From the sequence record OL631484.1: a DNA stretch of 64,000 nt. One strand, written 5' to 3'. Shown piece after piece: positions 4,899 through 60,128 of this stretch. Origin of the DNA: Escherichia phage ECML-606-1. Numbering within the stretch: the first letter of the stretch is position 1; every line of letters starts with the position of its first letter. The translations under genes were made by a program, and so were the position numbers. The notes under the pieces are model-generated. The model had not been told where the DNA came from and made no database searches. It saw only the letters and a list, made by a program, of their open reading frames with translations.

Positions 4899-6653
4899 TT
4901 ACAGGTCGGGCAGACCAAACGATTTGTAGAGCCCTTCCTCGTCGAGGTTCTGCAATGTGTTATGCAGCTCATCGAATTTTTTCTTATTGTCGGCTTGCAG
5001 CTGCTCCTGCTCGGCCTGCTGCTGTGCAGCTGCGTCGGCGTCGTCAGGGTTGGCAGGATCAGCGCCCAGCTCCTCGCCCGGCTGCTGTAGCTCGGCCTGC
5101 TGCGCCATCTGCTCGGCCTGAATATCAGCGTTGACCTTAGCCATATAAGGCTGCATCGAAACGCTGTTAAGCGGGGAGTTGGCCCAGTCTTCTTTGATTT
5201 CTTCCCAGTTGCGAGCGCGGCGTGCTTCGTTGACGGTAAGGAGCGTTTTCTCCTCGTCCCACGCCTGCTTCGGATCCTTCTCATCCAGACCTGTCCAGCG
5301 GAACACGTACTTATCTGAGAAGTCGGAAATGATGTAATCGGTGAATAAGTCCTCAAAGTGCGACAGCAGCGGTCGCAGGCCCTTATCCTTCGAGTTGATC
5401 AGCTTCTCCTCCGTGTCACTGCCGGACAGCGAACTGGTACCAGCAGTGAAGGATTCGAAGTTGATCTCGTCCGGGGCGATGCCATAAATAGCGCAGATGA
5501 TCGCGGTTAAGAACGTCATCCATTTGGCAAACATGATCTCGTTAACGTCTACGCCAAAGTTTTCAAATTTCGCCGTGGATTCCGAAGTTTTGGAAACCAT
5601 GACGGGCAATGTCCATGCGTTATTGATGCCCTTCACCATGCTATTCCAGTACCGCTTAAAGGAGTTGAGATCCTCGGTAGAATAGTCGCCGGAGAGATGG
5701 AGCAGACCTTTCGGGATGGCGTTCGAGTCGAAATACTTCTGGTTGTACGTCATGGCGTTCAGGAAGCCCGTGACGGTGTTTACCAGCAGCTCAGTTTCGC
5801 TCATCCCGTAACCTCCGTTCAGCACATCGGTGCGGGTGTTGCGCGGAACATAGATCAGGTCGTTGTAGGTGTAAGCGGTGCGGATGTTCCCCTGCACCAC
5901 CTGTAAAGCAAAAATCTCATCATCGCCCTTGTAGCCGTCCTCAGTACAGAGGCGGATCGTGGCACCATCGACGGCATAAAGCCCGTCCATGCCTAGCGAG
6001 CGGTTTTTCTTGAATTCGGTCTCAATCGGCGCGGAGTCCATCACCAGCGAGTCGCGCACCAGCTTGCTCATGAAGCCTGAGAAGTTATCGCGCTTGAGGC
6101 GAGCACGCACGCGGGGGTTACTCTCCCAGCCGCAGTTTTGCATGAACATTTGCAGCGCGTTGATGGAGTCCTGCTCAGGCTTCGCCAGCCGCTGTGAGCC
6201 ATTCTGCTCTTTCAAGCGAATCTGGAAGCCGGGGCCCACGCCTTTCTCACTGGCGCGGCAGAAGCGTTTGATCTGGCGGATGCGGGTCATCACCACCGCC
6301 GACAGGATTGGCGTCTTGTCCACCATGTAGCGCATGGCATCAAAGCCAAAGTTTGTCGGACGCTCATACCAGTCTCCCAGAATCTGCACCTGACGGTCAT
6401 CCAGCCAGACAGACTGCATACCTTCTTTCTTGCCCTCGCGGACAGCCTGAGAAGGGTAATCGACCAGTGTATTTTTCTGGAGGGACTTGTAAAATTCCTG
6501 ATCAGCATATGACTGGGCAATATGCTGAATCAGCGGAGCCAGATCCGGCACGCTGGAAGGCATTGCAGCTTTCTGCGCTTGCGCCATCGCATCCTGCTGT
6601 TCGTCGGCAGGCGCGGCAGGGTTGTGCGCGGTTTGGATGGCGTTGTCAGACAT
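4899..6653 (-). CDS. portal protein (putative)
   Basis: about 585 aa between terminase and MuF-like gene; ATG at 6653 has AAAGG SD; longest ORF extends to TTG at 6710. Confidence 0.5.
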   Translation of the reverse strand: MSDNAIQTAHNPAAPADEQQDAMAQAQKAAMPSSVPDLAPLIQHIAQSYADQEFYKSLQKNTLVDYPSQAVREGKKEGMQSVWLDDRQVQILGDWYERPTNFGFDAMRYMVDKTPILSAVVMTRIRQIKRFCRASEKGVGPGFQIRLKEQNGSQRLAKPEQDSINALQMFMQNCGWESNPRVRARLKRDNFSGFMSKLVRDSLVMDSAPIETEFKKNRSLGMDGLYAVDGATIRLCTEDGYKGDDEIFALQVVQGNIRTAYTYNDLIYVPRNTRTDVLNGGYGMSETELLVNTVTGFLNAMTYNQKYFDSNAIPKGLLHLSGDYSTEDLNSFKRYWNSMVKGINNAWTLPVMVSKTSESTAKFENFGVDVNEIMFAKWMTFLTAIICAIYGIAPDEINFESFTAGTSSLSGSDTEEKLINSKDKGLRPLLSHFEDLFTDYIISDFSDKYVFRWTGLDEKDPKQAWDEEKTLLTVNEARRARNWEEIKEDWANSPLNSVSMQPYMAKVNADIQAEQMAQQAELQQPGEELGADPANPDDADAAAQQQAEQEQLQADNKKKFDELHNTLQNLDEEGLYKSFGLPDL

Positions 6654-14617: not shown

Positions 14618-14646
14618 ATAATACGTCATGCGTGCCGTATGGTCAA
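14618..14646 (-). promoter_or_regulatory. sigma70-like promoter TTGACC-N17-TATTAT with palindromic operator in spacer
   Basis: minus-strand hexamers; spacer contains ACGGCACGCATGACGT. Confidence 0.45.
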
Positions 14647-18900: not shown

Positions 18901-21900
18901 GGTGGCAGGGTTGTCGCCTTTCTTCGCCACGTAATCCTGTACAGCCATCAGCGTTTCGAGGTTGTCTTTGGCGTTGTTGAAGACCAGCCCAAGGTCATAC
19001 ATGTTTTTCGGCTTGCCCGGCGCAGCGGTCAGCTTGTCCAGCACCTCAGCCATGTACTCCTTGTACTTGGTACCGTTGATCGTGGTGCTCGGCGTCACGT
19101 TCTGCTCATATTTCATAGCCTCAATGAGCAGCTTTTTGCTGTTCTCATCCTTCGCCAGTGTTGCAGCGATGGCGTAGCCCTGAAAATCAGTTGCCTCGGT
19201 CGAGTAGAAACCAACGTCCGGCTTAATCGGCAGGTTGAGCGGCTTGCCATGCTTTTTGAAGTAAGCCTGACCGATTTCAGACGCAGCGTAGACGTGCCCG
19301 CTGTTCATTTTCAGGATATTGTCGATAACAGTCGTGTACGCGCCCTTATCGCCATGGTTATCCTTGATGAATTCCAGACCGATGCTGGTCGCATCATCGC
19401 CGTTCGCGCCAGCGAGGGCCTGTTTGAGCGCCACAATCTCGCTGCCCGCGCTGCCATTGGCTGAGGTCTCAGGCATATCCTGCTGTAAGATCCAGTGCCC
19501 ATTATGGAAGACCAGAATACCGCCTTTACCCTGCTTGGTATCACCTTCTTTCGGGCCATCCTCTACCAGCCACTTATTGACCTCCTGCTGGTACAGTTTA
19601 ACCTGCACAGCAGCTGGCTCTGAAAGGTGAAGCTCGCTCAGCTCATTAAAGTGCTTGGCGATCACATCAGGATCTGATTCTTTGCCTTTGTGAACTTCTT
19701 CGGCAATGACGTTATAGAGGGTCTGCACTTTCGTGCCATAGGTTTTCACCGTGTCGCTGGTTGGTGATACCAGCGGTTTTTCTGGCTCAGTCCCGTAAGT
19801 CTCACTCCACCACTTACCATAGGCTTTCTTGCCAGCGATAAAGAACTCATTCGCCAGCTCGTTAAACCCATTGTCCTTCATGGCCTCAGCCAGCACCACC
19901 AGCTGCGGCGCATCATGCCCATTCGCCGTCATCCAGTCGCCAGCAATCGCGTCGGCCTGTTTTTCGTCCTTGGCATCTGTCAGCGCATCAAAGGCGCTTT
20001 CCCACATGGCGTAATCATTCAGGATCGCTTTCTTCTCCTGCTTACGCTCATGTTTGGTGGCAATCTGCTCGGATTTCGCCGCAGCCTGAGACTTCTCGGC
20101 CCATGAATCGTACAGCTTCCCGACGCTGGACTCGGAGAAGGCCAGATCGCTACCGTAATAGGTAGACGCCTGCTCAATGAATGCCTCGCCTTTTGTCTTC
20201 GCCCACTCGTTGAACTCAGCCACATCGGCAAAATCCGGCAGCTGCGGCTCAGGGGTTGGCGCACGCTCCTGCTTGATCTGCGGTGGCGTCGGCAGGGATT
20301 TCACGGAGATATCGCCCAGCTCTTTCTTGGCGGCGGTCACGGCTTCGATGATCCACGCGGACAGATCAACCTTCTGGAAGGCATCAATCAGGTTCTGGTC
20401 ATCACGGATCACTGTCACCATGTCGTTGATGTTGTCCACAGCCAGCGCCCAGTTACCCGCGTTGAGGTCATTCTGGATGTCCTCACAGATGCCGTCGATA
20501 AACGCATCACCAGTCTGCGGAGGATTGGAGAAAGTCTTCACTCCCTCAGGCTTAGGCGCAGCAGCAAGGCCCAGAGACTCCGCCAGATTGACCGCAGGCT
20601 CTTTGCCAGCCATTACCTGCTGGTAAACCTCATTCTGCGTGTTGGAGAAGCCGGAGATATGGCCCCAGTCGCCCTTCTCGTTAACCCACATACCAGATCC
20701 CGGATTCTTCGGATCCGCGACGATGACTGCGCTGGTATTGGTCGGGTAAACGCCTGCGTCTGGAGTCGTGGACAGCACGCCATTCCACATGTTCTTGATG
20801 ACGTTTTGCTGCTTCTGGGTCAGGTGATTCGGCTTGCCCAGCTCCACCAGCTCGGTCGGGTACTCGCTATGGTGATAGTCGGAAATGTAGCCCAGATTGT
20901 CCGGGGTTTTGGTGTTGCCACCAAAGCCGATCAGTTTCAGGTACTGTCCCGCTTGGAACGGCTTAGCCAGCGGCTCACCCTTCTTGCTTATAGGCCATGC
21001 GGTCGCGTGCCCCATCAGCACTTTCAGGTACGGCTTACCGTCCTTGTCGTAGGTCTGGATGATTGAGCCTGCGGGCAGGTTCGGCATATCGGAGATCGAC
21101 AGCTTCTGGCCCTTTTTGAACTCACCAGCGACAGGCTGATCCTTGAGCGGCTCGCCAGTCTCCTGATTGTGCCAGCGACCGTCTTTGAAAACCTGCATCC
21201 CGTTTTTGCCCATGCGGGTATCACCTTCCTGCGGGCCTTCCTCAGCCCGGACGGTTTTCTGCTGCTCAACCTCTGCGCTGGCCTTCTGATCCTTTTCTGC
21301 CTGGCTAAACTGGCCCAGCATTGGATGCACGGCGTCTTTGCCGATAACCACTTTGATATCCGGGTAGCCCAGCGCTGCCAGCGCGTTATTCGCAGCCTTG
21401 GCGACTTTGAGCCCGTAGGTGTTTTTTCCGTATGTCATCGCCAGAATGCCGTTGATGTTGCCTACTTCGCCAGCGGCCTTGATAGCGGCGATCTGCGCGT
21501 TGTAGCTCTTGGCATTCTTAATGTTCTCCGCGACGGCGAACTGGCTCCAGTCGATAGCGTCCATGGCCTTCTTCGACACGGATGCTTTCGGGGCTGGCTT
21601 GCCTTCGGCGGTGTCCGGCTGCGCCGGGGAGGTAGCGATGATTTCAACCGCGCTCAATGGGCTCGGCTCCTCGGACTGCACCAGCGGCTTATTCGGATTC
21701 TCACCCGTCAGCAGCGCCAGCTTTTGCCCGTAGAGGTTCAGCAGCTTTTTGCTGTTCGGGGTGATGCCCTTCCAGCTTTTCGCCTTGCTCTTGATAGCTT
21801 CCAGCTCCGCCAGACTGGTGGCGTCGATGACCTTCTGAGCCTGCGCCTCATACGCGGTGCGCACGCCAGTGGAGTTTTTGCCGGATTCAAATTTAGGCAT

Positions 21901-22764
21901 GACGATTTCGCCTGGCTTCGGTGCTTCGGCAGCAGGTGTTGAGGCTTTCTGGACTTCTTCTTTAGCTGCGTTTTTTTTCTCAGGTGAAGGAGACGGCCCA
22001 TCTTTTGGCATAATAAGGCTTAGTTTTTTTGCTCCACCCGGTTCAGTTTTAAAGTATCCAAACTGCGTACCGTAATTCTCAATCGCGTGCAGCTGGTGCT
22101 GTTTTAAATCACCAATCTCAATAGTGATGACGTTATTTTTTACTTTGTATGCTTCAATCGGTGGCAGACCTAGGTAACTCTCAATTCCAGAAACAATGGC
22201 TTGTTGTTTGGCTGTCAAATTACCTGTAGCTGGTTTTGTTGCTGCCTTTGCCTCTTGCGCTACGGCTTCAATGGCCTGCTCAGCCATCTGATCGACGGTC
22301 TCAGGCTCTCTCTCGTATGTGGCGATGGCAGGGTGCTCACCCGCTTTCTGGCCCGCGCTGACCTTCTCCTGCGAGCCCATTTGCTCCAGCAGATAGTTGG
22401 CAATCGCCACCAGCTTTTTACCGTGGGTGTTCACGCCATAGGATGATCCCAGAATCGCCGCGATATCGCCGTTGGCAGCGTGCTGCAACAGGTTCGGGAC
22501 GTGTTTCTGGTTGAAATGCTTAATGTCTTTGTTGGTCGCCTCTTTCTCAGCAGGATAGAGCAGCTGGCTCGACTCCTCCTTAGGCATGGCGTAAGGCTTA
22601 TGGCCTTTGCCACCAGCTTTAGGGTGCGCGGCTTTCGGGGCGTTCTTGACGCCCTTCATGTCCGGCGTGGTTTTCTTCCAGCGCCCATTGATCAGAGCAT
22701 AGCCCGCTTGGTGGGCGAATTTTTGATTAAGTGCTTTTGCGAGGACAAGCATGGTGGCCACCAT
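15991..22764 (-). CDS. giant virion-associated protein with C-terminal ADP-ribosyltransferase-like domain
   Basis: 2257 aa; C-terminus has TFGRKF, IMSTSIS (STS) and GEKEIILPP (ExE); recurring internal motifs EGDTKxGxxGxxVFxNGRW and ILGSSYGVNTHG / ILAMTYGKNTYG. Confidence 0.65.
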   Translation of the reverse strand: MVATMLVLAKALNQKFAHQAGYALINGRWKKTTPDMKGVKNAPKAAHPKAGGKGHKPYAMPKEESSQLLYPAEKEATNKDIKHFNQKHVPNLLQHAANGDIAAILGSSYGVNTHGKKLVAIANYLLEQMGSQEKVSAGQKAGEHPAIATYEREPETVDQMAEQAIEAVAQEAKAATKPATGNLTAKQQAIVSGIESYLGLPPIEAYKVKNNVITIEIGDLKQHQLHAIENYGTQFGYFKTEPGGAKKLSLIMPKDGPSPSPEKKNAAKEEVQKASTPAAEAPKPGEIVMPKFESGKNSTGVRTAYEAQAQKVIDATSLAELEAIKSKAKSWKGITPNSKKLLNLYGQKLALLTGENPNKPLVQSEEPSPLSAVEIIATSPAQPDTAEGKPAPKASVSKKAMDAIDWSQFAVAENIKNAKSYNAQIAAIKAAGEVGNINGILAMTYGKNTYGLKVAKAANNALAALGYPDIKVVIGKDAVHPMLGQFSQAEKDQKASAEVEQQKTVRAEEGPQEGDTRMGKNGMQVFKDGRWHNQETGEPLKDQPVAGEFKKGQKLSISDMPNLPAGSIIQTYDKDGKPYLKVLMGHATAWPISKKGEPLAKPFQAGQYLKLIGFGGNTKTPDNLGYISDYHHSEYPTELVELGKPNHLTQKQQNVIKNMWNGVLSTTPDAGVYPTNTSAVIVADPKNPGSGMWVNEKGDWGHISGFSNTQNEVYQQVMAGKEPAVNLAESLGLAAAPKPEGVKTFSNPPQTGDAFIDGICEDIQNDLNAGNWALAVDNINDMVTVIRDDQNLIDAFQKVDLSAWIIEAVTAAKKELGDISVKSLPTPPQIKQERAPTPEPQLPDFADVAEFNEWAKTKGEAFIEQASTYYGSDLAFSESSVGKLYDSWAEKSQAAAKSEQIATKHERKQEKKAILNDYAMWESAFDALTDAKDEKQADAIAGDWMTANGHDAPQLVVLAEAMKDNGFNELANEFFIAGKKAYGKWWSETYGTEPEKPLVSPTSDTVKTYGTKVQTLYNVIAEEVHKGKESDPDVIAKHFNELSELHLSEPAAVQVKLYQQEVNKWLVEDGPKEGDTKQGKGGILVFHNGHWILQQDMPETSANGSAGSEIVALKQALAGANGDDATSIGLEFIKDNHGDKGAYTTVIDNILKMNSGHVYAASEIGQAYFKKHGKPLNLPIKPDVGFYSTEATDFQGYAIAATLAKDENSKKLLIEAMKYEQNVTPSTTINGTKYKEYMAEVLDKLTAAPGKPKNMYDLGLVFNNAKDNLETLMAVQDYVAKKGDNPATYQDIVKAAGDNVAHIPVLQSILKDSINMHGVPQGIPKASYKGDSMADADALDGLAAMAMLAKYTDSPEMKEAVLNSVKESAYALMANQGTDVVKMSMTDYAISTMTFVQDQITGAEEPAPAPEPAAPELGNIDLKLLDDIKSIAETKTGLQKVVKASVACKEYYDANPDKVDAVSTIKSVLIINDFTPVAIEGILTAIKNTVAEEDAKKADEGQKEGDGPKEGDMKPGANGMLILKNGRWVRANPDEIPAPDFAALGLSAWQQDHYMKYVDNLKAKLTKGGGTKGVIMQKADGSMLIYGEFGMKIKVSTEYGPTAPGKKALAQYASMMLMANGIKVKSGYNPEVNGTYAMNGVAQLMNATAATSNPAENGLAADGPMEVKKYQWKKKEPISVDEWTVTGGNQGGSNEGMKMKDADGQEWYVKFPDNEEHAKAEVLAAKLYSAAGLSAQDAMIVTKDGKMAIASKWENIKKAKTHAALAKAKGMLEGFAVDAWLGNWDVVGLAKDNVQLKDDGTIHRVDAGGSLMFRAQGAKKEFGPVVKELESLMDPKMNANSAAVFGGMTEADIAASVSKVLAISDAKIAHMVNQYGPGDEKAKKELVETLIKRKEYLAEKYPEAEQIIKMQKFKPEKISTPPDFLNWSGVGKSGPSSKEFLNKGNHDAAQAIYSAALTGDPEAIRGLTAPTFDKDTGAVTGQVPVLDHPSQHIKGYAMQAINEIKSQLTGHEAEQFRIGGDHPLYSMHEEYKPENWSGNDADKIGNLLVLGHPGIVEPEDLGITKTTFKAGTLTTNTYAKAAQEVWEKLPMTQKQAVQAYTGSSYKQMNSGLWKGNPSAEAKAAAQALSGMGHEISPGTTFGRKFSLGSGDLSKLKASVGKVIMEPAIMSTSISPDVWSGNIHLKMTAGPGVKGIYAGAGSLPSGGSISHHTGEKEIILPPNTRLLITKVNESGTKDADGFGGSGMTVVECIILPSV

Positions 22765-24724: not shown

Positions 24725-24753
24725 ATATTATTACGTCATGGGTGACGTGTCAA
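24725..24753 (-). promoter_or_regulatory. sigma70-like promoter TTGACA-N17-TAATAT with perfect palindrome ACGTCATGGGTGACGT in spacer
   Basis: minus-strand hexamers; palindrome at 24733-24748. Confidence 0.5.
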
Positions 24754-26496: not shown

Positions 26497-26524
26497 ATGA
26501 TACGTTATGCGTGACGTAATGCAA
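26497..26524 (-). promoter_or_regulatory. sigma70-like promoter TTGCAT-N16-TATCAT with operator-like palindrome ACGTTATGCGTGACGT
   Basis: minus-strand hexamers; palindrome at 26502-26517. Confidence 0.45.
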
Positions 26525-26556
26525 GTATTATTTACGCCACTGCTGACGCATGGAGT

Positions 26557-28558: not shown

Positions 28559-28587
28559 AATTATTTACGGCATACGTGACGCATCAA
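28559..28587 (-). promoter_or_regulatory. sigma70-like promoter TTGATG-N17-ATAATT with CGTCACGTATGCCG element in spacer
   Basis: minus-strand hexamers; overlaps stop codon of methyltransferase gene. Confidence 0.35.
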
Positions 28588-30095
28588 AAGGCATCGTCAT
28601 CTTCATCAGGATCCGGCAGGTGCCGATCCTCGGTCTCCTCCGGGAATTCCTCTCCGGTGTAGAAGTGGACGGCCTTACGCCCGGTCAGGTTCTGCCAGCG
28701 ACGAATCGCCACATCAGCAAAGCCCAGATCGAGCTCCATCACGCGTGCGCATACGCCCATTCGCTCGGCGGCCACCAGTGAAGTACCAGAGCCGGAGAAG
28801 GGATCCACCATGATGTCATTCAGGCGCACGGTGTTCTTCATCATGCGCTCCCACAGCTCCACGGGCTTCTGCGTCGGGTGCAGGTCGCTGCGGTCAGGAC
28901 GCGGCACGCTGACCACGCTGCCCAGCATTGACTCCACCTTGGCGTCGCCTTCCACCCGCATGATGAGATCGCCGTACTGGAAATACCAGTTACCCTCGGC
29001 ATCCTGTTTGAATGGGCTTGAGTCGCCAAACTCCGCGACGGTCGTTTGCTTCCTGCCACCGTGCCAGCGGTGCTTGGCACCCTTGCGCCAGCCGTACAGG
29101 ATTGGTTCATGGATGCTTTGGAAGTCAGCCATGCCCAGTGTCATGCTGTTCTTCTTCCAGATGACATTCTGGGAGAAGTGGAAACCGACCTTTTCAAACG
29201 CCCAGCGCAGGCCATGGGCCATCTTGTCGGAGTGGCTGATATAGGTCACGCCGCCCGGCTGCATCGCGTCATAGGCGCAGCTCAGGACATTGACGAGGAA
29301 CTGATTAAAGTCCTCCTCGTTTTTCCAGTCGTTAGCGATCCCGCCAGTGCGCGAGCGCTCGCCTCCGATGGCCTTATCCATGCGCTTATTCTTCTTGCCC
29401 ACATCGACGTTATACGGGGGATCGGTCAGCATCATGTTGGCCTTCTCGCCCTGCATCAGCGCCAGCCAGCTTTCCGGCTGCTCAGCATCGCCAACATACA
29501 GGCGATGAGCGCCCAGCACCCACAAGTCGCCCGGACGGCTCTTTGGCTCGTCAGGAAGCGGTGGCGCATCATCGGGATCGCTGTCACCTCCTCCTCCCTC
29601 CATCGGCGGCAGCTTCATGATCTCGTCCAGCTGCTCAGGGTCGAAGCCGATAACATCCAGATCGTAGTCCAGATCAGCCAGGGCATTCATTTCGATGCGC
29701 AGCATGTCCATGTTCCACTCGGACGCCCGGCCCAGCTGGTTATCCGCGATGATGTACGCGCGGCGCTTAGCCTCATCCCAGCCAGTGCAGTCCAGCGTCG
29801 GCACCATGCCAATAGGGATCGGTGTGCCATCCGGGAAAGCAATTTGCTTGCCCTCGCTGTACAGCTTCATCGCTGCCAGCTGGCGTCCATGGCCTGCCAC
29901 AATCCCTTGCTCATCGACGAGGATGGCGTTAGTCCACCCGAATTCAAGCATTGACGCGGCGACCTTCTGGACGTGCGCCGGGCTATGGTCGTTTGAGTTG
30001 TTCACGTAGGGGATGAGGCTATCAACCGGGCGCAGCCGGATCATCGGGGGGATCACGTCCAGCCCCAACATCTTGTTAAAATCTTTATCAGCCAC
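28584..30095 (-). CDS. DNA methyltransferase with N-terminal ParB-like nuclease domain
   Basis: ParB/Srx-like VAGHGRQLAA; methyltransferase motif IV LTDPPYNV before motif I VDPFSGSGTS (beta-class N6A/N4C order). Confidence 0.7.
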   Translation of the reverse strand: MADKDFNKMLGLDVIPPMIRLRPVDSLIPYVNNSNDHSPAHVQKVAASMLEFGWTNAILVDEQGIVAGHGRQLAAMKLYSEGKQIAFPDGTPIPIGMVPTLDCTGWDEAKRRAYIIADNQLGRASEWNMDMLRIEMNALADLDYDLDVIGFDPEQLDEIMKLPPMEGGGGDSDPDDAPPLPDEPKSRPGDLWVLGAHRLYVGDAEQPESWLALMQGEKANMMLTDPPYNVDVGKKNKRMDKAIGGERSRTGGIANDWKNEEDFNQFLVNVLSCAYDAMQPGGVTYISHSDKMAHGLRWAFEKVGFHFSQNVIWKKNSMTLGMADFQSIHEPILYGWRKGAKHRWHGGRKQTTVAEFGDSSPFKQDAEGNWYFQYGDLIMRVEGDAKVESMLGSVVSVPRPDRSDLHPTQKPVELWERMMKNTVRLNDIMVDPFSGSGTSLVAAERMGVCARVMELDLGFADVAIRRWQNLTGRKAVHFYTGEEFPEETEDRHLPDPDEDDDAF

Positions 30096-37933: not shown

Positions 37934-37949
37934 ACGTCATTATTGACGT
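37934..37949. promoter_or_regulatory. perfect palindromic operator candidate ACGTCATTATTGACGT
   Basis: 16-bp inverted repeat 45 nt upstream of the XRE regulator start codon. Confidence 0.5.
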
Positions 37950-38410
37950 AAGCCAGCATTCTGATAACTGGCATATCTGGCGTCGGTCGCCATTTCATCC
38001 AGCATCGCCCTCAGGCCGCTGACGCCGTGGCGCATGATCCCGAAGTGCAGGGCGGCGTGCAGAAACGCATCGGCGTTGTTGTCCCCCTGCTTGTTGATGC
38101 GCGGGATGATGGTTTTGCTGGTGGCTAATCCGGTATCAACCGGGATGATGACCTGACCTGCCAGCTGAGGGGCACGCTCGCCGGGAAGCATATCGCGCAG
38201 CCAGCGCTTACACATGATGGACTGCTCCAGTGCTTTCTCAGCCGTGCGGTGCTCGCTGACGGTGGCGGCGTGGCACAGTGCCCCGTTAACCATGCCGGAC
38301 AGGATGACGCGACGGCCTTTGGTCGCCACAATCAGATCCGCGTAGCCTTCGGCCTTGGCCTGCTTCACGCACGCGGCGAGGTGATGTTTGCTTGGTGCGC
38401 TCTTAGCCAT
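37940..38410 (-). CDS. hypothetical protein
   Basis: 156 aa ORF. Confidence 0.4.
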   Translation of the reverse strand: MAKSAPSKHHLAACVKQAKAEGYADLIVATKGRRVILSGMVNGALCHAATVSEHRTAEKALEQSIMCKRWLRDMLPGERAPQLAGQVIIPVDTGLATSKTIIPRINKQGDNNADAFLHAALHFGIMRHGVSGLRAMLDEMATDARYASYQNAGLRQ

Positions 38411-40115: not shown

Positions 40116-40144
40116 ACTATACGGCACAGGTGACGCGTCCGCAA
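40116..40144 (-). promoter_or_regulatory. sigma70-like promoter TTGCGG-N17-TATAGT with operator-like palindrome in spacer
   Basis: minus-strand hexamers; spacer contains ACGGCACAGGTGACGC. Confidence 0.45.
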
Positions 40145-51943: not shown

Positions 51944-51972
51944 AATATACGTCATGGGTGACGGGTGCGCAA
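51944..51972 (-). promoter_or_regulatory. sigma70-like promoter TTGCGC-N17-TATATT with palindrome ACGTCATGGGTGACGG in spacer
   Basis: minus-strand hexamers; palindrome 51949-51964. Confidence 0.45.
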
Positions 51973-52038: not shown

Positions 52039-52377
52039 TTAGTTACAGCGGACGGTGCCAAACGAATCGCGTCGGCAGGTGCTGCCATCGCTTCCCCGCG
52101 TCGTGCCGAAGCTGTCAGTGCGCCAGCTGTTTCCGTGGTTGTCACGGGTGGTGCCGAAGCTGTCCGTGCGGTACACGGAGCCATCGCTGCCGCGCGTGGT
52201 GCCAAACGAATCGGTGCGCCAGCTATTGCCATGGTTATCGCGCGTTGTCCCAAAGGAATCCGTGCGGTAGGTGGTGCCGTCATCACAGCGCGTGGTGCCG
52301 AAGGAGTCAGAGCGGCAGGTCAGCGCGGAGGCGTTAAAGCTGGCGGCGAGCGCCAGCAGGAGGATCAGTTTTTTCAT
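52039..52377 (-). CDS. secreted tandem-repeat protein
   Basis: signal peptide MKKLILLLALAASFNASA, then six 16-aa repeats of RTDSFGTTR(D/G)NHGNSW type with Cys at both ends. Confidence 0.6.
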   Translation of the reverse strand: MKKLILLLALAASFNASALTCRSDSFGTTRCDDGTTYRTDSFGTTRDNHGNSWRTDSFGTTRGSDGSVYRTDSFGTTRDNHGNSWRTDSFGTTRGSDGSTCRRDSFGTVRCN

Positions 52378-52784: not shown

Positions 52785-52857
52785 AATTAAGCCCCCATAG
52801 CTCTTTCGGAAACAGCCTAGCGGTTAAGCTGGGCCATAATATCGGGTTGATGAAATG

Positions 52858-52885
52858 ATTGTACGTCACTAGTGACGTAATGCAA
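52858..52885 (-). promoter_or_regulatory. sigma70-like promoter TTGCAT-N16-TACAAT with perfect palindrome ACGTCACTAGTGACGT in spacer
   Basis: minus-strand hexamers; palindrome 52863-52878. Confidence 0.5.
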
Positions 52886-52896
52886 TACCCGGACAT

Positions 52897-52926
52897 AAAA
52901 AAAGCCCCGATTAGTGGGGCTTTTTA
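52897..52926. terminator. bidirectional rho-independent terminator
   Basis: AGCCCCGATTAGTGGGGCT hairpin flanked by A7 and T5. Confidence 0.6.
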
Positions 52927-53445
52927 CTATTCTGCTTTCAGATGTTCAATCTGCCGTTTCAACGCGGCGATCTCCCAGTCCTTTTCCTCAATCGCCCGGT
53001 TTTTATCGGTCAGGGCCTGACGACACATATCATTCAGTTTCAGGACATCCTGCCGGACGCCTTCGATTCTGGCGTCGCGCTCGGCTACCTTGCAGCGTTC
53101 GAGGTGCAAAGCCTCGCAAGTTTTGCTGTGAGCATCAATCTCAGCTTTATAGGCCAGCTTAGTGGTCTGGTGATCTTCCTCAGATTTGGTCAGAGCCAGC
53201 CGCAGACGCATCAATTCCAGCGCGTCATTACCGCCGAAACTAAACGGATCCTGATAGGTGCGCTGCGTGCGGCGATACTCGCGCTGCTCAGGCTGAGCCT
53301 TTGCGCCGGGCACGTTGATAGTGCGCAGGTCGATCCCGGCCTGATTGGCATAAGCCACGGCACGACCGAAAGCCGTTGCGGCTTCCTCTTTGTTCGTGGT
53401 GCCGTAGGCCAGTGCCAGCAGCTTTTCAATTTTCGCCCTACTCAT
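52927..53445 (-). CDS. hypothetical coiled-coil protein
   Basis: 172 aa; GAGGAAG SD. Confidence 0.45.
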   Translation of the reverse strand: MSRAKIEKLLALAYGTTNKEEAATAFGRAVAYANQAGIDLRTINVPGAKAQPEQREYRRTQRTYQDPFSFGGNDALELMRLRLALTKSEEDHQTTKLAYKAEIDAHSKTCEALHLERCKVAERDARIEGVRQDVLKLNDMCRQALTDKNRAIEEKDWEIAALKRQIEHLKAE

Positions 53446-53484
53446 AAAAACTTCCTCAGGTTGTATCTTGGGTTGTTGCGCCGG

Positions 53485-53503
53485 ATTATAATCAAAAAAG
53501 AGG
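53485..53503 (+). promoter_or_regulatory. promoter-like element TTATAATCAAAAAAGAGG (first copy)
   Basis: TATAAT -10-like hexamer plus A-tract and SD; near-identical copy at 53738-53756. Confidence 0.35.
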
Positions 53504-53516
53504 AGATTGGAAGCAT

Positions 53517-53744
53517 ATGAAAAAACATTATTCCGAAATAAACCCCCATGAGGAGGACTTTCTTTATCGTCGCCTCGCTGCTGTCTGCCCGGTCACACAG
53601 AACGGCAGAAACATGGATATCGCTCTCCAGTGTGACGGCGACACGCAGAGCGTTACCAGCGTCGCCTATGGTTATGGCCCGGTGATTGGAAAATGGGACA
53701 CGCCAGAACTCAGCGACGGACGGGTGAAGATTCCGCGCTCATAA
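53517..53744 (+). CDS. hypothetical protein
   Basis: 75 aa; GAGGAG SD. Confidence 0.45.
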   Translation: MKKHYSEINPHEEDFLYRRLAAVCPVTQNGRNMDIALQCDGDTQSVTSVAYGYGPVIGKWDTPELSDGRVKIPRS

Positions 53745-53812
53745 TCAAAAAAGAGGTTGCGCCACGTATGCCGTAAGGCTATTATTCAGCCATCTACTAA
53801 GAGGGACGGAAT

Positions 53813-54154
53813 ATGAAAAAGGTACTCATCGCGGCGCTGCTGGTTTCAGCCAGCGCGGCAGCAACAGAAACACCCGCAATGTCGTTTATCTGCCCGATGA
53901 GCGACGGCTCTCAGATGGTGATGCGCGTCTATGGCAATGACACCATTGACCTCTTTGAGGAGGGCACCGAACCGGGCGACCGTAAGATGCTGGTTAAGGT
54001 CAGCGAAACGCCTCAGGATGTGATGCTGCAAGTGTTTGACCGCAGCTCTCACCAGCTGGTTGGTACCGTCGCGGTTATCAATGGCAAAACCTCCCTGCTG
54101 GCTAACGACGCGGACGGCGATTGCAACATTACTCAGCGCCGGGGCTCACAATGA
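53813..54154 (+). CDS. secreted/periplasmic small protein
   Basis: signal peptide MKKVLIAALLVSASAAA; two Cys. Confidence 0.5.
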   Translation: MKKVLIAALLVSASAAATETPAMSFICPMSDGSQMVMRVYGNDTIDLFEEGTEPGDRKMLVKVSETPQDVMLQVFDRSSHQLVGTVAVINGKTSLLANDADGDCNITQRRGSQ

Positions 54155-54522
54155 AAACTGTAGCAGCCATTGCGCTGATCATGCTCTCCGGCGCTGTGCA
54201 GGCCAAAAGCACCGCAGGCGAGCAGCATTACCCGAAGGGGATCTACCATTGCGTTGATGAAAAAGCGGGTAACTACCTGCTGCAAATCGGCCCCGGCAAC
54301 GTGGCGGCGATGGTTGACGCTGAGGATATTGGCGAGCTCAGGCTGGCGTACATTACCGCCCGCGACAAGATCAATAACTTCACGGCTACAATGAACGTTG
54401 AAGGCGATTACATTGGCAAAGTCACCGTAACACCGACGACCGCGCTGATTTCTTTCCCTGATAACACCGTGGCGAAGTGCGATAATAAGCGCCCGGTAAA
54501 CGCTGAGGAGTACCCGGAATGA
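54151..54522 (+). CDS. secreted/periplasmic small protein
   Basis: ATG 54151 in ATGA overlap; signal peptide MKTVAAIALIMLSGAVQA; two Cys. Confidence 0.5.
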   Translation: MKTVAAIALIMLSGAVQAKSTAGEQHYPKGIYHCVDEKAGNYLLQIGPGNVAAMVDAEDIGELRLAYITARDKINNFTATMNVEGDYIGKVTVTPTTALISFPDNTVAKCDNKRPVNAEEYPE

Positions 54523-54701
54523 GAGTATTGGTAACGCACGATCACCCTAACCCGGCATCAGCTGCGTCGCATTGCTGGACGCTGGTAAACGGTGGATGGC
54601 AGGCTCGCACCGTGCAGCGCGACGGTAAACATTTCGTTGAAGTGGGAGCATGGGTTGGCTATGCAAAAAACGCCCCGGCAGCAGGCCGTGGAAATAGCTG
54701 A
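54519..54701 (+). CDS. hypothetical protein
   Basis: 60 aa, ATGA overlap; conflicts in part with next ORF. Confidence 0.3.
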   Translation: MRVLVTHDHPNPASAASHCWTLVNGGWQARTVQRDGKHFVEVGAWVGYAKNAPAAGRGNS

Positions 54702-54933
54702 GCAGGCATATGAGGCGCTGTTAGCCTCCCGGCGCGGTGAAACTCATCCACGGTTAATAAATTACATGGAGCGCAGCATTAGCGAGCGCCTGCAACGTGC
54801 GCAGGCATACGCTGAGGCGAAAGCTCTCGAACCGCAGCGCGAAGCTGTTAAACCTACCGCCAGCAGTGAGCCGCTTGGCCCGGTCGATGAAACGATCCAC
54901 CATGGCCCCGGCTGGTCTCGCAGGAGTGACTAA
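54661..54933 (+). CDS. hypothetical protein
   Basis: internal ATG of track ORF 54592-54933. Confidence 0.3.
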   Translation: MQKTPRQQAVEIAEQAYEALLASRRGETHPRLINYMERSISERLQRAQAYAEAKALEPQREAVKPTASSEPLGPVDETIHHGPGWSRRSD

Positions 54934-55142
54934 TGACTGAAAAAGTAGCTGGAATGACCGCTGAGGAGATCGTGCGTTTCCTCAAAGAGTCCATCGAGAA
55001 ACGTTGCGGCGAACTGCCGTCATGTTCGGAAGTGGTCTGGGACTGCGATAACTTCCTGATCAATTCGCATCAGGTTGTTGGCGATATCTGCGAGAAGTTT
55101 GGCCTGTACTCCAAGCCAGACGAGGACTGGAAAGACGAATAA
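54933..55142 (+). CDS. hypothetical acidic protein
   Basis: 69 aa, ATGA overlap. Confidence 0.4.
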   Translation: MTEKVAGMTAEEIVRFLKESIEKRCGELPSCSEVVWDCDNFLINSHQVVGDICEKFGLYSKPDEDWKDE

Positions 55143-55498
55143 TGGCAATGCGCGTCACTGAACCAAACACCAACGGGCGCGGAGGTAAACGCGCTCAGTA
55201 TAACAAGCTGGAATCGCGGCAGCGTGCCATTGAGAATGGCGATAACACTTACTGGTCGCCGTACCCGTGCAAGCGGGCTGGTCATATTGGCCTGCGTCGC
55301 ACCAGCAGCGGAAAATGTATCGAATGTGAGCGGATGCGCAGCACTGAGCGCAAGAAGAAGCGCCACGATGATTTCAGAGCCAGCATCACCCCAGCACCGC
55401 GCAGCCTTGGCGCTTATGCCCTTATGCGCGGTACCGACTTAACCCCGAACACCAAAAAAATGGAGCCGCAATGTCAGCCAAAGACGAAAAACAAGTGA
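55142..55498 (+). CDS. hypothetical basic protein
   Basis: 118 aa; CKRAG...CIEC Cys pairs. Confidence 0.4.
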   Translation: MAMRVTEPNTNGRGGKRAQYNKLESRQRAIENGDNTYWSPYPCKRAGHIGLRRTSSGKCIECERMRSTERKKKRHDDFRASITPAPRSLGAYALMRGTDLTPNTKKMEPQCQPKTKNK

Positions 55499-55758
55499 TT
55501 ACCCAAGGGGCCGAAGGCCAGATCAATCCGGTCTCCGGTCAGCGGGTTAAATTATTCGTTGATGGTCAGGAGGTGCAGCCGATTGACGCCGACAGCCTGA
55601 GCGTCGAGGTGCCTGCCAAAGAGACCAAACCGACCGATCCGCAGCCGGGCGAGACCAAAAGTAAGCACTTTATCCGCCTGTTCCGTGGCGCGTTCTTCGG
55701 GCCAAACGCCATGCGTAACCACTCCGGCCTTAAATTGAAGAAAGGGAAGCGCAAATGA
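55471..55758 (+). CDS. hypothetical protein
   Basis: 95 aa. Confidence 0.35.
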   Translation: MSAKDEKQVITQGAEGQINPVSGQRVKLFVDGQEVQPIDADSLSVEVPAKETKPTDPQPGETKSKHFIRLFRGAFFGPNAMRNHSGLKLKKGKRK

Positions 55759-56033
55759 GCGACAAATGCAAAGTCATCGGCAATAAACTGACGCCGTGTA
55801 AGCACCTGCAATCTGCTATCCAGCCCGGAAACCCCAGCTCGATTTCTCGCGGTATTTATATTCCTTCACGGGTGAATCTTACTACCGGGGAGCCGGGAAC
55901 TGACATTGTGCAAATCCATTCCGGCGATCATTCCGTGCGCGGTGTAGCCGCTAATTTTTGCCCATTCTGCGGCACGGCGATCAATACATGGGATGCGCCT
56001 GAAAGCGCTGTAAAGGTCAACCATGAAAATTGA
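55755..56033 (+). CDS. small zinc-ribbon protein
   Basis: CK...CKH and CPFCG motifs. Confidence 0.4.
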   Translation: MSDKCKVIGNKLTPCKHLQSAIQPGNPSSISRGIYIPSRVNLTTGEPGTDIVQIHSGDHSVRGVAANFCPFCGTAINTWDAPESAVKVNHEN

Positions 56034-56580
56034 AGACACCCAGACGCGCACCATCAAGATCTGGGATCTGCCGGAATACTTCGACATCATCCTGGTGAAT
56101 ATCAGCAACACTTATCCCGGTGCCGGGCGTCTGACGCTTACCGCCGACAGCGACAGCTGGAGCCACTACTGGAGTGCTATGGGTGAGGATCGCCCGCTGG
56201 AGCAATTCCTGCTGGACACCAACGTGGATTACATCGTCATGAAGCTGGGGAACGGCATCAGCAGCACGCTGGATGAGCGCGACGATGAGCAGTGCGCCAA
56301 AGCCATCCAGCGCGCGATCCTCAAAGCTCGTCGGCGTGGAGACATCACGGCGGCAGAAGCGCATCAGGCTTACTTCGACATCGAAGGTTGCGAGAATATT
56401 TATAACCGCTGGGTGTATACCGATGATTTTTATGCCTGCGGTCGCGTTGACGATGACGATATCAAATGGCCTGAGCCACCATCTAACCCGGCATATGAGC
56501 GTCTGGAGTATGCCGTCACCAAAATGCGCGAAGCGCTTACCCAGTTGAAGGAGAAAACCGATGCCACTGCCACCGTTTAA
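56023..56580 (+). CDS. hypothetical acidic protein
   Basis: 185 aa. Confidence 0.45.
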   Translation: MKIEDTQTRTIKIWDLPEYFDIILVNISNTYPGAGRLTLTADSDSWSHYWSAMGEDRPLEQFLLDTNVDYIVMKLGNGISSTLDERDDEQCAKAIQRAILKARRRGDITAAEAHQAYFDIEGCENIYNRWVYTDDFYACGRVDDDDIKWPEPPSNPAYERLEYAVTKMREALTQLKEKTDATATV

Positions 56581-56980
56581 TGACACATTCCCTCGCGTAT
56601 CAGTTGAGGTCAGAGAACTGAATCAGCTGCGGGCCATCAGGGACGCCGCCATGCAGCTGCTGCGCTGCAAAGGTCGCTACCACTCCGAACTCAATTACAA
56701 AGCGCTGGCTGAGGCGCTGGGCGTTACCTCAATCCCTGACGTTAGCCCGTGGCATGACCGAAATAAAATTCAGCCGCTCCTCCCGGAATCGCAGGTGGCC
56801 GGAGATAATATTTTTGAGCACGTTGCGGTACTGACTCGCTGGGAAGGTGATCAGCATCCTTGCGTCGGCTACTACATCGGCAATAACCAATTCCAGCACG
56901 CTGACGGCACAATGGAAGGTCGGATCGGTTGGGGCGGTAAAAAGTATCGCTGCATCGAATGGATGGAGTTGCCAGTATGA
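56561..56980 (+). CDS. hypothetical protein
   Basis: 139 aa. Confidence 0.45.
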   Translation: MPLPPFNDTFPRVSVEVRELNQLRAIRDAAMQLLRCKGRYHSELNYKALAEALGVTSIPDVSPWHDRNKIQPLLPESQVAGDNIFEHVAVLTRWEGDQHPCVGYYIGNNQFQHADGTMEGRIGWGGKKYRCIEWMELPV

Positions 56981-57216
56981 CCGCGCGTGCGTACATGGGG
57001 CCAAAGCGCCGGGATCAGTTTATCGATCCGCTGCCGGGCGCAATCATGAAGGCACGCCAGATGAACATGGACGATCCGAACCACGCGCATTTCTGCGTCG
57101 TGCAGTGTCATGGGGAGGTGCAGGTGCTCCGGCATATCGACAGCAGCTGGCGAGTGCTTTACAGCACGCGGCATGACGAGGAAAAGAAGACGTTTCTCCG
57201 GCAAAAGTACCATTAA
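56977..57216 (+). CDS. hypothetical protein
   Basis: ATG 56977 in ATGA overlap (track ORF from 56959). Confidence 0.35.
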   Translation: MTARAYMGPKRRDQFIDPLPGAIMKARQMNMDDPNHAHFCVVQCHGEVQVLRHIDSSWRVLYSTRHDEEKKTFLRQKYH

Positions 57217-57246
57217 AAATAAAGCCCCTTACGGGGCTTTTTTTAT
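57217..57246. terminator. bidirectional terminator at convergence of plus-strand operon and primase gene
   Basis: AAAGCCCC-TTAC-GGGGCTTT hairpin flanked by A-run and T8. Confidence 0.65.
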
Positions 57247-60128
57247 AGCGGTAAATCTTCCTGAATCGCGCCTACATCGAGGCATTCATGGATTGGAATG
57301 GCTACGCACGCCTTGGCACCGTCGCCGCGCACTACGCGCCGTTTAGTGCGCTCAGCGCCGGGGATTCGCATCAGCTGGCCCGGCAAGTTGGTAGAGAATG
57401 ACTGCTCAGCGATCATCTTTTTAAGCTGACCGGGCATACTGACAAGCACCAGCACGCGCCCGTCAAACTCATCGTATTTCATGCCCAGATAGCTCAGCGC
57501 CGTGATGGCGTCATTCATCTGGATGCTGCCCGGAATATCCAGCTTGGCGTTATGCTTCCCGGCATAGACGCGAGCCAGCAGGTCACGCACGGAATACTCA
57601 ATCGTGTTGTATTTAACGAGACTTGAGAGCAGGAAGGATAGCGCCTGCTGGGCATCATCATCTTCTTTCTCCGGCAGGGAATCCGACCAGTCGAATTGTT
57701 CCAGGTATGCCAGAGCCACTTCCTCAGACGGCGCGACATCATGATCCAGCATGTAGTCACCCGCCATAAGAGTACCCAGCTGGTCAGTGTTACGCTGCGA
57801 GCCAAAGGCTTTCAGGCCGATGCGCCGGAACACGTTCACAGCTTTCAGGATCTCAGGCATCAGCATGACGCTGCGTGATACCCAGCGATCAGAGAATGAT
57901 TCATCCTCAAGCTGGAGGCGCATTTCGTACTCGGTATCAAGCCAGACTTGCTTTGCTGCTGCGTCGGTTGGGTCGGAGGCGTTGAGCTCCAGCAGGGTAA
58001 AGCGGTCGCTATCGGCTTTCTTGTCGATTTGCGGGTTGATGGAGCCGAACATAAACATGCTGCTGATTAGATAGCTTTGCTCGTCACCTGAGGCTGAGCC
58101 TTTCGCAGTTTTAGCGCGGGACAGGCTGGACGCCTGCCGGGCCATCGTCATGACCGCAGCCATGCTTTCCTTGCTCTTACGGTCGTTACTTTCCGCCTCA
58201 TCCATCCCTACTGGCTGCGACTTATTACGCAGCGTCTGACGGATCCCCGCCTCTGACGAGTTACCCTGGAAATACAGCATCGAATCGCCAAGAATCCCGG
58301 CGTAATGGTTGAGCACGGTGGATTTACCGGAGCCTGCTGGCCCTGTGATCCAGATGTGCGGACGCCACGGGAGGATCCCGCAGATAGGCGCGAGGAATGT
58401 CCAGCCACAAAGCAGGTTGGCGAACTGCGGACGCCGCCAGCGCAGGCGGTTGGCAATATTCCGCACTTCCCGCGCCTGCACATCCGTTAAGGCCGTCATA
58501 ATCTTCACCAGTGGCTTGGTGATGGTGTAGACGTAATTGCCGGGGATGAAGCGCAGCGGGTGATCTTTTCCGTTGTAAATCGCCCCGGTGCCATAATGGA
58601 AAATCAGCGCGTCACCATCACGCCACGCGCCCGGCGCTCGCACCTTGGCCTCGTCGAACGGGCCAACGATGTGGGAGATTTTGATCAGGTCGTTTTGCGC
58701 GGTGGCAATCTCGAACTGATCTTTAGAATTGAGGTAATGATCATCCCACCACTCCTTTGGAGCCAGCATATAGAGGTTGCTGGCCTGCATCTGGTTGGTT
58801 TTCAGGTTCACGACTTCTTTCATCGCGTTGACGTAGAAGAAGTAATGGAGGCTGCGGTGCCCCAGAAAACGGAAATGCGGGTTATTGGAGTAAATAGCCC
58901 GGTCAATGCTGGCATTCTGGTTCATTTTCTCAGTGTCGAGAGCCTTGGCCCATGGGGCTGGCTCCTCTCCTGAGGCGTCGGCTGGCTCCTCGTCTTCATC
59001 GTCATCCAGAGGGCTTGGCAGCACTGGCGGAGGAGGATTAAGCACGATATCAAACTGAGCAGCTACCACGTCCAGACCTTCACGGCAGTGCAGATCGTTG
59101 AAGTCGGTAGGCTCGCCTTCCAGTGACGCGAACTGCGGGAAGATAGCCTGACCGCCCAGAATCTCAGCAGCCTCTTTCCCCTTTTTACGCCCGGCGTTGT
59201 TAGGAACGGATTTAACAAAGGTGAACTGGTCATTGTCGCCGCCGATCAGGAAGCGGGGATTTTTCCCAGACTTTTTCAGCTTCTCTTTGAGGGCCTTGGC
59301 GACGTTGACAAGGTTCCCGGCATCCAGACAGACGATAACGGCGTGCCCGGTCGCTTCATGGATAGAGGCCCCGGTGGCGTAGCCCTCGCACAGGATGAAA
59401 ACCATGCGGTCATTGATGGTCTTCGGCTTGCCGATCATGTGATAGCGGCCCATCTTCGCGCCGCCCGGTAAAAATAGCTTGTTGGTCGCGTCCTCAGGCA
59501 CCGATGAAGGCGGTACGATGGCTTGCAGTGACCAGATTTTTTTCGGGTTGAACACATCCACCAGCGGCATCAGCAGCGCGGTATCTGTCAGCTTTTTCCA
59601 ATATCCTCGGTCTTCTTTCTCTACCGGAGGCACCCAGACCGACCACGGGCCAACGCGGAGCCCGTAGGCTTTAACCTGCTTGGCTTTCAGATAGTCATGG
59701 TCTGCTGGCACATCTTCACTGGCAGCATCCCAGATATTCGTTGCGATGACGGATTTCTTTTCTTCCTTCTCGGCACGCTCTTTCTGGCGCAACGCATCAC
59801 GCGCAGCGCACTCAGCTTTAAACTTAGCCTTTTCCTCAGCCGACAGCGGGGCAAAGTTGCCTTCCATCTGCCATTTAATGCCTTCGGGAGAAGTTTTGCG
59901 GTGATCGCCAAAGACACCAGCCGGGCGATCATCGTAATAGAATTTGAACCATCCGGGCTCGCCATGGTTGGCATCCTCAGGACGGAAGCGATCAGGCGGT
60001 GAGCCTGCGAGAGAAGGTAAAATTTCGCCGTGGTATTCAATACCAGCATCGAACATAGCAGCGCGAAAGGCTTCGGTAGCGTCTGCTAGTGTTGGTCTTT
60101 CTGAATAGTTATTAGATTCGTTAGCCAC
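57243..60128 (-). CDS. DNA primase-helicase (TOPRIM + P-loop NTPase)
   Basis: 961 aa; TOPRIM-like ILCEGYATG and FLIGGDNDQ; Walker A ITGPAGSGKST; GTG start at 60128 with AAGGA SD. Confidence 0.6.
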   Translation of the reverse strand: MANESNNYSERPTLADATEAFRAAMFDAGIEYHGEILPSLAGSPPDRFRPEDANHGEPGWFKFYYDDRPAGVFGDHRKTSPEGIKWQMEGNFAPLSAEEKAKFKAECAARDALRQKERAEKEEKKSVIATNIWDAASEDVPADHDYLKAKQVKAYGLRVGPWSVWVPPVEKEDRGYWKKLTDTALLMPLVDVFNPKKIWSLQAIVPPSSVPEDATNKLFLPGGAKMGRYHMIGKPKTINDRMVFILCEGYATGASIHEATGHAVIVCLDAGNLVNVAKALKEKLKKSGKNPRFLIGGDNDQFTFVKSVPNNAGRKKGKEAAEILGGQAIFPQFASLEGEPTDFNDLHCREGLDVVAAQFDIVLNPPPPVLPSPLDDDEDEEPADASGEEPAPWAKALDTEKMNQNASIDRAIYSNNPHFRFLGHRSLHYFFYVNAMKEVVNLKTNQMQASNLYMLAPKEWWDDHYLNSKDQFEIATAQNDLIKISHIVGPFDEAKVRAPGAWRDGDALIFHYGTGAIYNGKDHPLRFIPGNYVYTITKPLVKIMTALTDVQAREVRNIANRLRWRRPQFANLLCGWTFLAPICGILPWRPHIWITGPAGSGKSTVLNHYAGILGDSMLYFQGNSSEAGIRQTLRNKSQPVGMDEAESNDRKSKESMAAVMTMARQASSLSRAKTAKGSASGDEQSYLISSMFMFGSINPQIDKKADSDRFTLLELNASDPTDAAAKQVWLDTEYEMRLQLEDESFSDRWVSRSVMLMPEILKAVNVFRRIGLKAFGSQRNTDQLGTLMAGDYMLDHDVAPSEEVALAYLEQFDWSDSLPEKEDDDAQQALSFLLSSLVKYNTIEYSVRDLLARVYAGKHNAKLDIPGSIQMNDAITALSYLGMKYDEFDGRVLVLVSMPGQLKKMIAEQSFSTNLPGQLMRIPGAERTKRRVVRGDGAKACVAIPIHECLDVGAIQEDLPL

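Follow-up and report, generated by a model that had tools for sequence, protein, structure and literature searches.

The window analyzed here is a 64,000-nucleotide stretch of Escherichia phage ECML-606-1 (OL631484.1) in which minus-strand genes predominate. Within it lies a plus-strand island of 12 tightly packed small genes (53517-57216), separated by a 71-bp gap (53446-53516) from the divergent minus-strand open reading frame (ORF) of a 172-aa protein. An earlier note placed a strand switch and a divergent control region here, and both descriptions stand: two copies of a short repeat are located in putative promoter DNA, one inside the gap and the other at the end of the 75-aa gene that opens the island. 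That gene, which sits between the repeat copies, went unmentioned in the note. The sole intergenic gap within the plus-strand block, 68 nt after the 75-aa gene, holds a second putative promoter, P2, and is followed by two genes for proteins of 113 and 123 aa with predicted signal peptides (Table 1).

Table 1. Features of the divergent region, the rightward block, and the adjoining leftward DNA (positions in the window)
Feature	Position	Strand	Remarks
Predicted leftward promoter, TTGCAT-N16-TACAAT	52858-52885	-	77 nt upstream of the ATG at 52784
Intrinsic-terminator-like hairpin, AAAGCCCC-loop-GGGGCTTT plus T-run	52897-52923	-	Directly after the 172-aa gene; read from the sequence
Leftward gene, 172 aa	52927-53445	-	N-terminal Pfam DUF2786, E=1.8e-5
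10-bp palindrome, GATTATAATC	53484-53493	both	Invariant in 7/7 aligned sequences
Repeat copy 1	53488-53503	+	Spans -10, start region, and GAGG(AG) Shine-Dalgarno of the putative rightward promoter (75-aa gene)
75-aa gene	53517-53744	+	No signal peptide; present in all three phage lineages; dN/dS 0.16-0.36
Repeat copy 2	53741-53756	+	A-tract AAAAAAGAG at 53747-53755; ends one base before the P2 -35
Putative promoter P2	53757-53785	+	-35 TTGCGC (53757-53762), N17, -10 TATTAT (53780-53785); predicted start ~53792
Imperfect palindrome, CGCCAC-GTAT-GCCGTA, 16 nt	53760-53775	+	Between the P2 hexamers; contains ATGCCGTAA
113-aa protein, predicted exported	53813-54154	+	Predicted 8-stranded beta-barrel; C27, C104; dN/dS 0.16-0.42
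123-aa protein, predicted exported	54151-54522	+	Predicted 8-stranded beta-barrel; C34, C110; ATGA overlap with upstream stop
Nine more tightly packed small genes, same rightward unit	54519-57216	+	ORF list
Terminator-like hairpin	57221-57240	both	Separates the rightward block from the convergent primase gene

The capsid and primase proteins place this phage in a group of ~90- to 95-kb myophages that includes Yersinia phage fHe-Yen8-01, Aeromonas phage ST4, and Bordetella phage PHB04. Enterobacter phage phiT5282EW, a 95.5-kb circular record annotated as hypothetical for nearly every gene, is 98% identical in DNA to window positions 52900-55200. The primase/helicase of the window (57243-60128, minus strand) shares only 59.5% protein identity with its phiT5282EW counterpart, and because of this difference we place a mosaic junction somewhere between 52900-55200 and the primase gene. 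Searches of a plasmid collection with both DNA and protein returned no match to the window. A similar block beside the primase gene of ST4 was considered and set aside, as no signal-peptide-like N terminus appears among the first ORFs listed there.

We compared the locus across an alignment of seven sequences, the window included, and with two more distant lineages that were reached through genes other than the exported pair: fHe-Yen8-01 (L014) and a 78- to 86-kb lineage (L015 and L019), referred to here as lineage B. The same gene order is found in L002 through L008, the contigs with the exported-protein genes. Relatives of the exported proteins are also carried by two IMG/VR contigs of ~95.5 kb, and none were found in GTDB genomes or JGI metagenomes. 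Flanking genes have a synonymous divergence of 0.3 to 1.4 and a ratio of nonsynonymous to synonymous rates (dN/dS) of 0.15 to 0.45, and from these values we conclude that the 75-, 113-, and 123-aa genes are real and under purifying selection. Conservation among the aligned relatives peaks at 53377-53600 and 53707-53766. Both copies of the repeat and nearly the whole 71-bp gap are invariant across the seven sequences.

The repeat is an exact 16-mer, ATAATCAAAAAAGAGG. The earlier note correctly reported that the element occurs twice and located both sites; the 18-mer that it quoted is exact only in copy 1 (53486-53503), and its positions were off by one. Copy 2 begins TCATAATC, with C for T, and overlaps the TAA stop of the 75-aa ORF. 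Allowing up to two mismatches, ATAATCAAAAAAGAGG has 2 matches in the 64-kb window against 0.06 expected, a count reached in none of 100 shuffles. No further good copy was found in the parts of phiT5282EW that were searched, which comprise all but ~28.3-69.1 kb, the equivalent of window DNA already covered.

Copy 1 overlaps a palindrome, GATTATAATC, that yields a perfect TATAAT on both the plus strand (53487-53492) and the minus strand (53490-53485). A relaxed promoter scan places a leftward -35-like hexamer, CTTCCA (53513-53508), 17 nt from its -10. The predicted starts, ~53499 on the plus strand and ~53478 on the minus strand, are 21 bp apart. Judged by these hexamers, the gap looks like a bidirectional sigma-70-type promoter, which would drive a single DUF2786 gene leftward as far as its terminator and the 75-aa gene rightward. 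Copy 1 would then simply be the -10, the start site, and the Shine-Dalgarno sequence of the rightward promoter. No operator-like palindrome site was found in the gap, and sigma-54 and integration host factor (IHF) readings of it fit poorly by eye. Inspection of lineage B reveals separate back-to-back -10s, with TTGTAA-N16-TATAAT leftward and TATACT followed by CAAAAAAGA rightward, and the divergent region of the Yersinia phage reads TGGTATTAT, an extended -10. In fHe-Yen8-01 (4984-5003), gene 057 as annotated starts only 14 bp from the divergent homolog of the 75-aa gene and traverses promoter-like DNA; this start is probably placed too far upstream.

P2 lies between the 75-aa gene and the exported pair, and its -10 ends 27 nt before the ATG at 53813. 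After the homologous gene, TTGCGT-N17-TATAGT is found in the Yersinia phage and TTGCGT-N17-TAATGT in lineage B (L015). The pattern TTGCGY-N17-TAnnnT is kept in the three lineages, and the spacers are unrelated. With hexamers spaced as in sigma-70 promoters (16 to 18 nt) and a position conserved among relatives, P2 is predicted to be active as a promoter of this class. The sequence AAAAAAGAG just upstream of its -35 matches the proximal-subsite consensus of the UP element, AAAAAARNR (PMC4132738). At the equivalent place, the Yersinia phage has CAAAAAAGACG-TTGCGT, and AAAAAAGA abuts TTGACC at another promoter in the window. Copy 2 of the repeat would supply this UP-element-type A-tract. The copies therefore do not hold equivalent places in their promoters: copy 1 covers ~-11 to +5 of the rightward promoter and copy 2 covers ~-51 to -36 of the internal one.

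Lineage B keeps TATACTCAAAAAAGA, which is related to copy 1. Site 1 of lineage B and site 2 of the Yersinia phage both retain a 9-nt core, CAAAAAAGA, which suggests that the A-tract is important at both sites. The remaining seven positions of the 16-mer belong to the -10 and the ribosome site at copy 1 and to the stop codon and free bases at copy 2; by a rough estimate, the chance of a coincidence at these seven positions is ~1 in 800. A different explanation is that the 16-mer is the site of a single factor, either phage encoded or a host nucleoid protein, that shuts the bidirectional promoter and activates or modulates P2 from ~-44, acting as a temporal switch. The exact 16-nt identity and the invariance of both copies (7/7 aligned sequences) fit this explanation, as does their separation of 253 bp, or ~24 helical turns. 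Copy 1 also covers both -10s, and the differing promoter positions would suit a dual repressor and activator. However, the 16-mer has only two genomic copies, is not retained as a repeat in lineages B and C, and lacks dyad symmetry. By eye, its WATCAA core looks like an IHF half-site with the TTR part missing, and the stop codon, the -10, and chance could account for the match at 7 of the 16 positions. We consider a single-factor site unlikely. Also rejected were an insertion of the 75-aa gene between the repeats, since the gene holds the same place in lineages without the repeat, and a frameshift role for the AAAAAAG heptamer, which looks like a frameshift site but is not within a reading frame.

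The palindrome in the P2 spacer belongs to a family that is distributed across the window. The pattern CGTCAC-N4-GNCGTA with at most one mismatch has 13 window hits (~10 distinct sites) against 0.85 expected, and none of 100 shuffles reached 13. The core ACGTC-N6-GACGT is likewise enriched, with 8 hits against 1.3 expected. Nine of the 11 distinct palindrome hits lie 24 to 112 nt upstream of a same-strand gene start. Most hits fall between a TTGNNN -35 and a -10, as in TTGCGC-acc-CGTCACccatGACG-TATATT, upstream of the 51909 ATG, and TTGCGG-acg-CGTCACctgtGCCG-TATAGT, upstream of the 40085 ATG. The leftward promoter at 52858-52885 encloses a perfect 18-bp palindrome, TACGTCACTAGTGACGTA (52862-52879). 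Copies of (T)ACGTCAC-N2-GTGACGT(A) are found at 14622-14639, 24732-24748, 26501-26548, 28565-28581, 37934-37950, 40120-40135, 51948-51964, and 52862-52879, mostly in promoter-like sites upstream of genes; at 26501-26548, two palindromes stand in tandem after a terminator. Lineage B has the core at the place that corresponds to P2, and the Yersinia phage has it in the divergent region. Relatives carry the P2 copy in the forms CGCCAC-GTAT-GCCGTA, CGCCAT-GTAT-GCCGTA, CGCCAT-CCAT-GACGTA, and CGTCAC-TCCT-GCCGTA, and the changes fall mostly on unspecified positions of the motif.

Dyad symmetry, several copies, and overlap with promoters are the marks of an operator, and the palindrome is most likely that of a dimeric phage regulator, which would probably act as a repressor. 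Alternatively, the palindrome could belong to a promoter type peculiar to the phage and recognized by a sigma factor, activator, or RNA polymerase that the phage encodes. Five of the sites share a fixed register, in which the final TA starts the -10 hexamer and TTGNNN lies 2 to 3 nt upstream, and conservation of the spacer sequence is unusual for a plain sigma-70 promoter. Against this, P2 and the 24747 and 28581 sites depart from this register by 3 to 7 nt, the sites overlap good sigma-70 hexamers (for example, TTGACA-17-TAATAT), and the dyad, perfect over 18 bp at 52862-52879, is typical of dimeric repressors. Given the register shifts and the dyad symmetry, we favor an operator distinct from the promoter and bound by a dimeric regulator, and we regard a special promoter element as unlikely.

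An ATG-CCG-TAA mini-ORF is indeed present in the P2 spacer (53768-53776, plus strand), as the earlier note reported, and it was raised there as a possible regulatory leader. In its fullest form, this proposal would make both repeat copies equivalent promoters (-10 plus start region) and the mini-ORF a translated regulatory leader for the exported-protein genes. Copy 2 does open with a -10-like CATAAT with a weak -35, CGGACG, at 17 nt; GAGG stands 11 to 13 nt before an ATG at both copies, and the mini-ORF is kept in 6/7 aligned sequences. However, its start is CTG in L002, and in the Yersinia phage (L014) GTGACG replaces CATAAT and the mini-ORF is missing. The A-tract and the mini-ORF are both absent from lineage B (L015). 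In L003, L004, and L006, ACG is the second codon. The ATG sits on unspecified positions of the palindrome, the variable bases are exactly these positions, and the L002 sequence, CGTCAC-TCCT-GCCGTA, fits the pattern perfectly. An exact 14-mer, CACGTATGCCGTAA, recurs at 28565-28578 (minus strand) in another promoter region, where it is not a leader. An explanation at the RNA level fares no better, with folding z-scores of -0.5 and +0.8 and no Rfam match, and a predicted pairing that would hide the Shine-Dalgarno sequence of the 113-aa gene is lost in relatives. We give the leader model very little credence: on this reading of the DNA, the mini-ORF is a by-product of the operator-like palindrome and not a leader peptide. 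It serves as a cautionary case of a tiny ORF with a nearby Shine-Dalgarno sequence arising as a by-product of a DNA-binding motif.

Downstream of P2 are the two adjacent signal-peptide proteins, each with two cysteines, that the earlier note had recognized, and the cysteine pairs are invariant in all homologs. Read by eye, both have signal peptides with n, h, and c regions: MKKVLIAALLVSASAAA followed by TE in the 113-aa protein (ASA/AAA) and MKTVAAIALIMLSGAVQA followed by KS in the 123-aa protein (VQA followed by K). These features persist across homologs despite sequence divergence. Both proteins are predicted Sec substrates of signal peptidase I, and we infer that they are exported. The lipobox L-[AS]-[GA]-C is absent in both. 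A 118-aa subfamily of the 123-aa protein (L002 5430-5786, L003 6339-6695, L004 6088-6444, and P0009) has a lipobox-like LASC motif (Cys14) in its signal peptide, a cysteine that the window version lacks, and there the protein may be a lipoprotein. The two genes are adjacent in every contig that contains both and, judging from the ATGA overlap, are translationally coupled.

Among 5.8 billion proteins, homologs form 5 clusters for the 113-aa protein and 4 for the 123-aa protein, and a profile search with the former returned the same 5. HMMER against 1.84 billion representatives added one relative, plus one spurious repeat protein. None of the 75-, 113-, and 123-aa proteins matched a family in Pfam, PHROGs, NCBIfam, or PADLOC, and sequence searches of the PDB gave spurious matches only. 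A BFVD fold search returned only unnamed proteins. The suggestion that the two are paralogs is not borne out, as BLASTP gives no alignment and hhalign gives a probability of 8% that covers the signal peptide only.

AlphaFold2 predicts all-beta folds for both, with a predicted local distance difference test (pLDDT) score of 84 and nine strand segments in DSSP for the 113-aa protein and a pLDDT of 68 and eight strands for the 123-aa protein. The two models match the same generic barrels, with one cysteine in the first strand and one near the C terminus, and this shared generic fold, the one point in favor of paralogy, is too common to establish common descent. A barrel-closing disulfide from the first strand to the last is plausible in these models. 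Such barrels could also be periplasmic inhibitors of lysozyme-like hydrolases of the MliC/PliC type, with a Spackle-like role in blocking the tail lysozyme of a superinfecting phage or lysis from without. Both window proteins share with MliC/PliC a predicted periplasmic address, a similar small size, and the placement of the cysteines in the first strand and near the C terminus, and they may also share the 8-stranded antiparallel beta-barrel. MliC/PliC proteins contact lysozyme through the motifs SxSGAxY and YxxxTKG, which are absent from both sequences. Neither protein nor any homolog matches Pfam MliC at E up to 10, there is no PDB sequence match, and fold matches to unrelated and designed barrels are equally good or better. 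We regard membership in this class as improbable.

Combining these observations, we favor, with modest confidence, a map in which a bidirectional promoter, an internal promoter P2 with an A-tract and an operator, and two coupled exported barrels head the rightward block of a ~95-kb myophage. P2, together with read-through from the first promoter, would transcribe 11 packed genes with the exported pair first, and the hairpin at 57221-57240 would close the rightward unit. In the periplasm, the two proteins would probably work jointly as stoichiometric binders or inhibitors of, for instance, an envelope protein or a cell-wall hydrolase. A role in superinfection exclusion or envelope modification, as raised in the earlier note, is a conjecture. 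The further idea that they represent a new phage family of periplasmic beta-barrels under operator control, whose complex blocks an envelope step, is speculative and, in our estimate, rather doubtful. The target of such a complex might be a host envelope protein or, in a superinfecting phage, the cell-wall hydrolase or the machinery for DNA entry.

Several observations weigh against this map. The rightward TATAAT has no recognizable -35, and a standard consensus scan of 52800-54300 returned no promoter; the P2 hexamers score only 8/12, below the threshold of that standard scan. The P2 palindrome is a weak copy, matching 10/11 specified positions with three mismatches to the 10-nt core, and a scan of 30 window proteins turned up no DNA-binding domain. 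If the two repeat copies do different jobs, their 16-nt identity is not fully explained, and a shared binding factor or local gene conversion is a possible source of it. The pairing of the exported proteins also varies. In the same slot, the Yersinia phage has a single 218-aa secreted protein with four cysteines; its homology to the mature 123-aa protein covers residues 121-215 (hhalign 93.6%, E=2e-7), with the alignment beginning right after the predicted cleavage site. Its N-terminal half compared with the 113-aa protein, signal peptide removed, gives no significant match (E=0.17). In lineage B, the first slot encodes an unrelated secreted protein with no cysteines and, by eye, a helical-looking composition, and the second slot encodes a 123-aa homolog. 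The Yersinia fusion and the lineage B partner together suggest that the 123-aa family is the conserved unit and that its exported partner varies.

The 75-aa protein is 48% identical to its homolog in fHe-Yen8-01. The first ~80 nt of its gene have unusually high synonymous-site conservation. In another frame inside the gene, a 45-aa ORF (53548-53685, plus strand) starts MRRTFFIVASLLSA and is signal-peptide-like; it is probably incidental, since L007 and L003 have it truncated and the Yersinia phage lacks it. On the leftward side, the terminator-like hairpin directly follows the 172-aa gene, which is therefore probably monocistronic; the standard consensus scan, which covered 52897-52923, did not list this hairpin. 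Downstream of the palindrome-bearing promoter at 52858-52885, a minus-strand gene (52039-52377) encodes a 112-aa protein with a signal peptide, ~8 tandem R(T/R)DSFGTTR repeats, and a cysteine at both ends. It has no family matches, and a counterpart of equal length is found at the same place in L002, L003, L007, and L015. Elsewhere on the minus strand, a 2257-aa protein (15991-22764) weakly matches an Alt-like ADP-ribosyltransferase at residues 2076-2182, and a 503-aa protein (28584-30095) joins a ParB-like N-terminal domain and a DNA methyltransferase in a single chain.

For a little-studied group of ~90- to 95-kb myophages, this analysis offers a transcription map with a predicted bidirectional promoter, a set of operator-bearing promoters, and terminators. 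Two orphan exported proteins, each with only 5 homolog clusters among billions of proteins, also emerge as candidates for an envelope-directed phage function. Current understanding is not overturned, and most elements have counterparts in known systems. T4 Spackle, a phage-made periplasmic blocker of lysozyme, would be a functional analog of the exported pair; Spackle is helical. T5 Llp and Cor are also small exported phage proteins that act at the envelope, and one subfamily of the 123-aa protein has the LASC motif. Unlike them, the window proteins have no lipobox, and there is no link in sequence or fold.

The operator-like palindrome resembles phage operators such as lambda OR/OL and P22 Arc/Mnt as a short dyad site between or across the -35 and -10 at many promoters of one phage. 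As in those systems, the site sequence here changes together in related lineages, though (T)ACGTCAC-N2-GTGACGT(A) matches no operator that we could name. In the manner of an UP element, AAAAAAGAG adjoins the weak -35 of P2, which would benefit from it, and a similar A-tract borders the -35 of the 14646 promoter and that of the Yersinia phage. The proximal subsite of an UP element canonically occupies -46 to -38; the A-tract here is offset by ~1 nt from this position, and lineage B has no A-tract. Finally, the divergent gap resembles the bidirectional sigma-70 promoters of Warman et al. 2021 (via PMC10268837) in its near-palindromic -10, its TATAAT on both strands, and its divergent genes. In PMC10268837, such promoters are defined by divergent starts 7 to 25 bp apart and most commonly have a spacing of 18 bp with positions -7 and -11 reciprocally paired. 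The hexamers of the window are offset the other way, and their predicted start spacing of 21 bp falls inside the definition. The overall architecture is of a known kind, with a predicted bidirectional promoter, an operator-bearing internal promoter with an A-tract, and coupled exported orphans.

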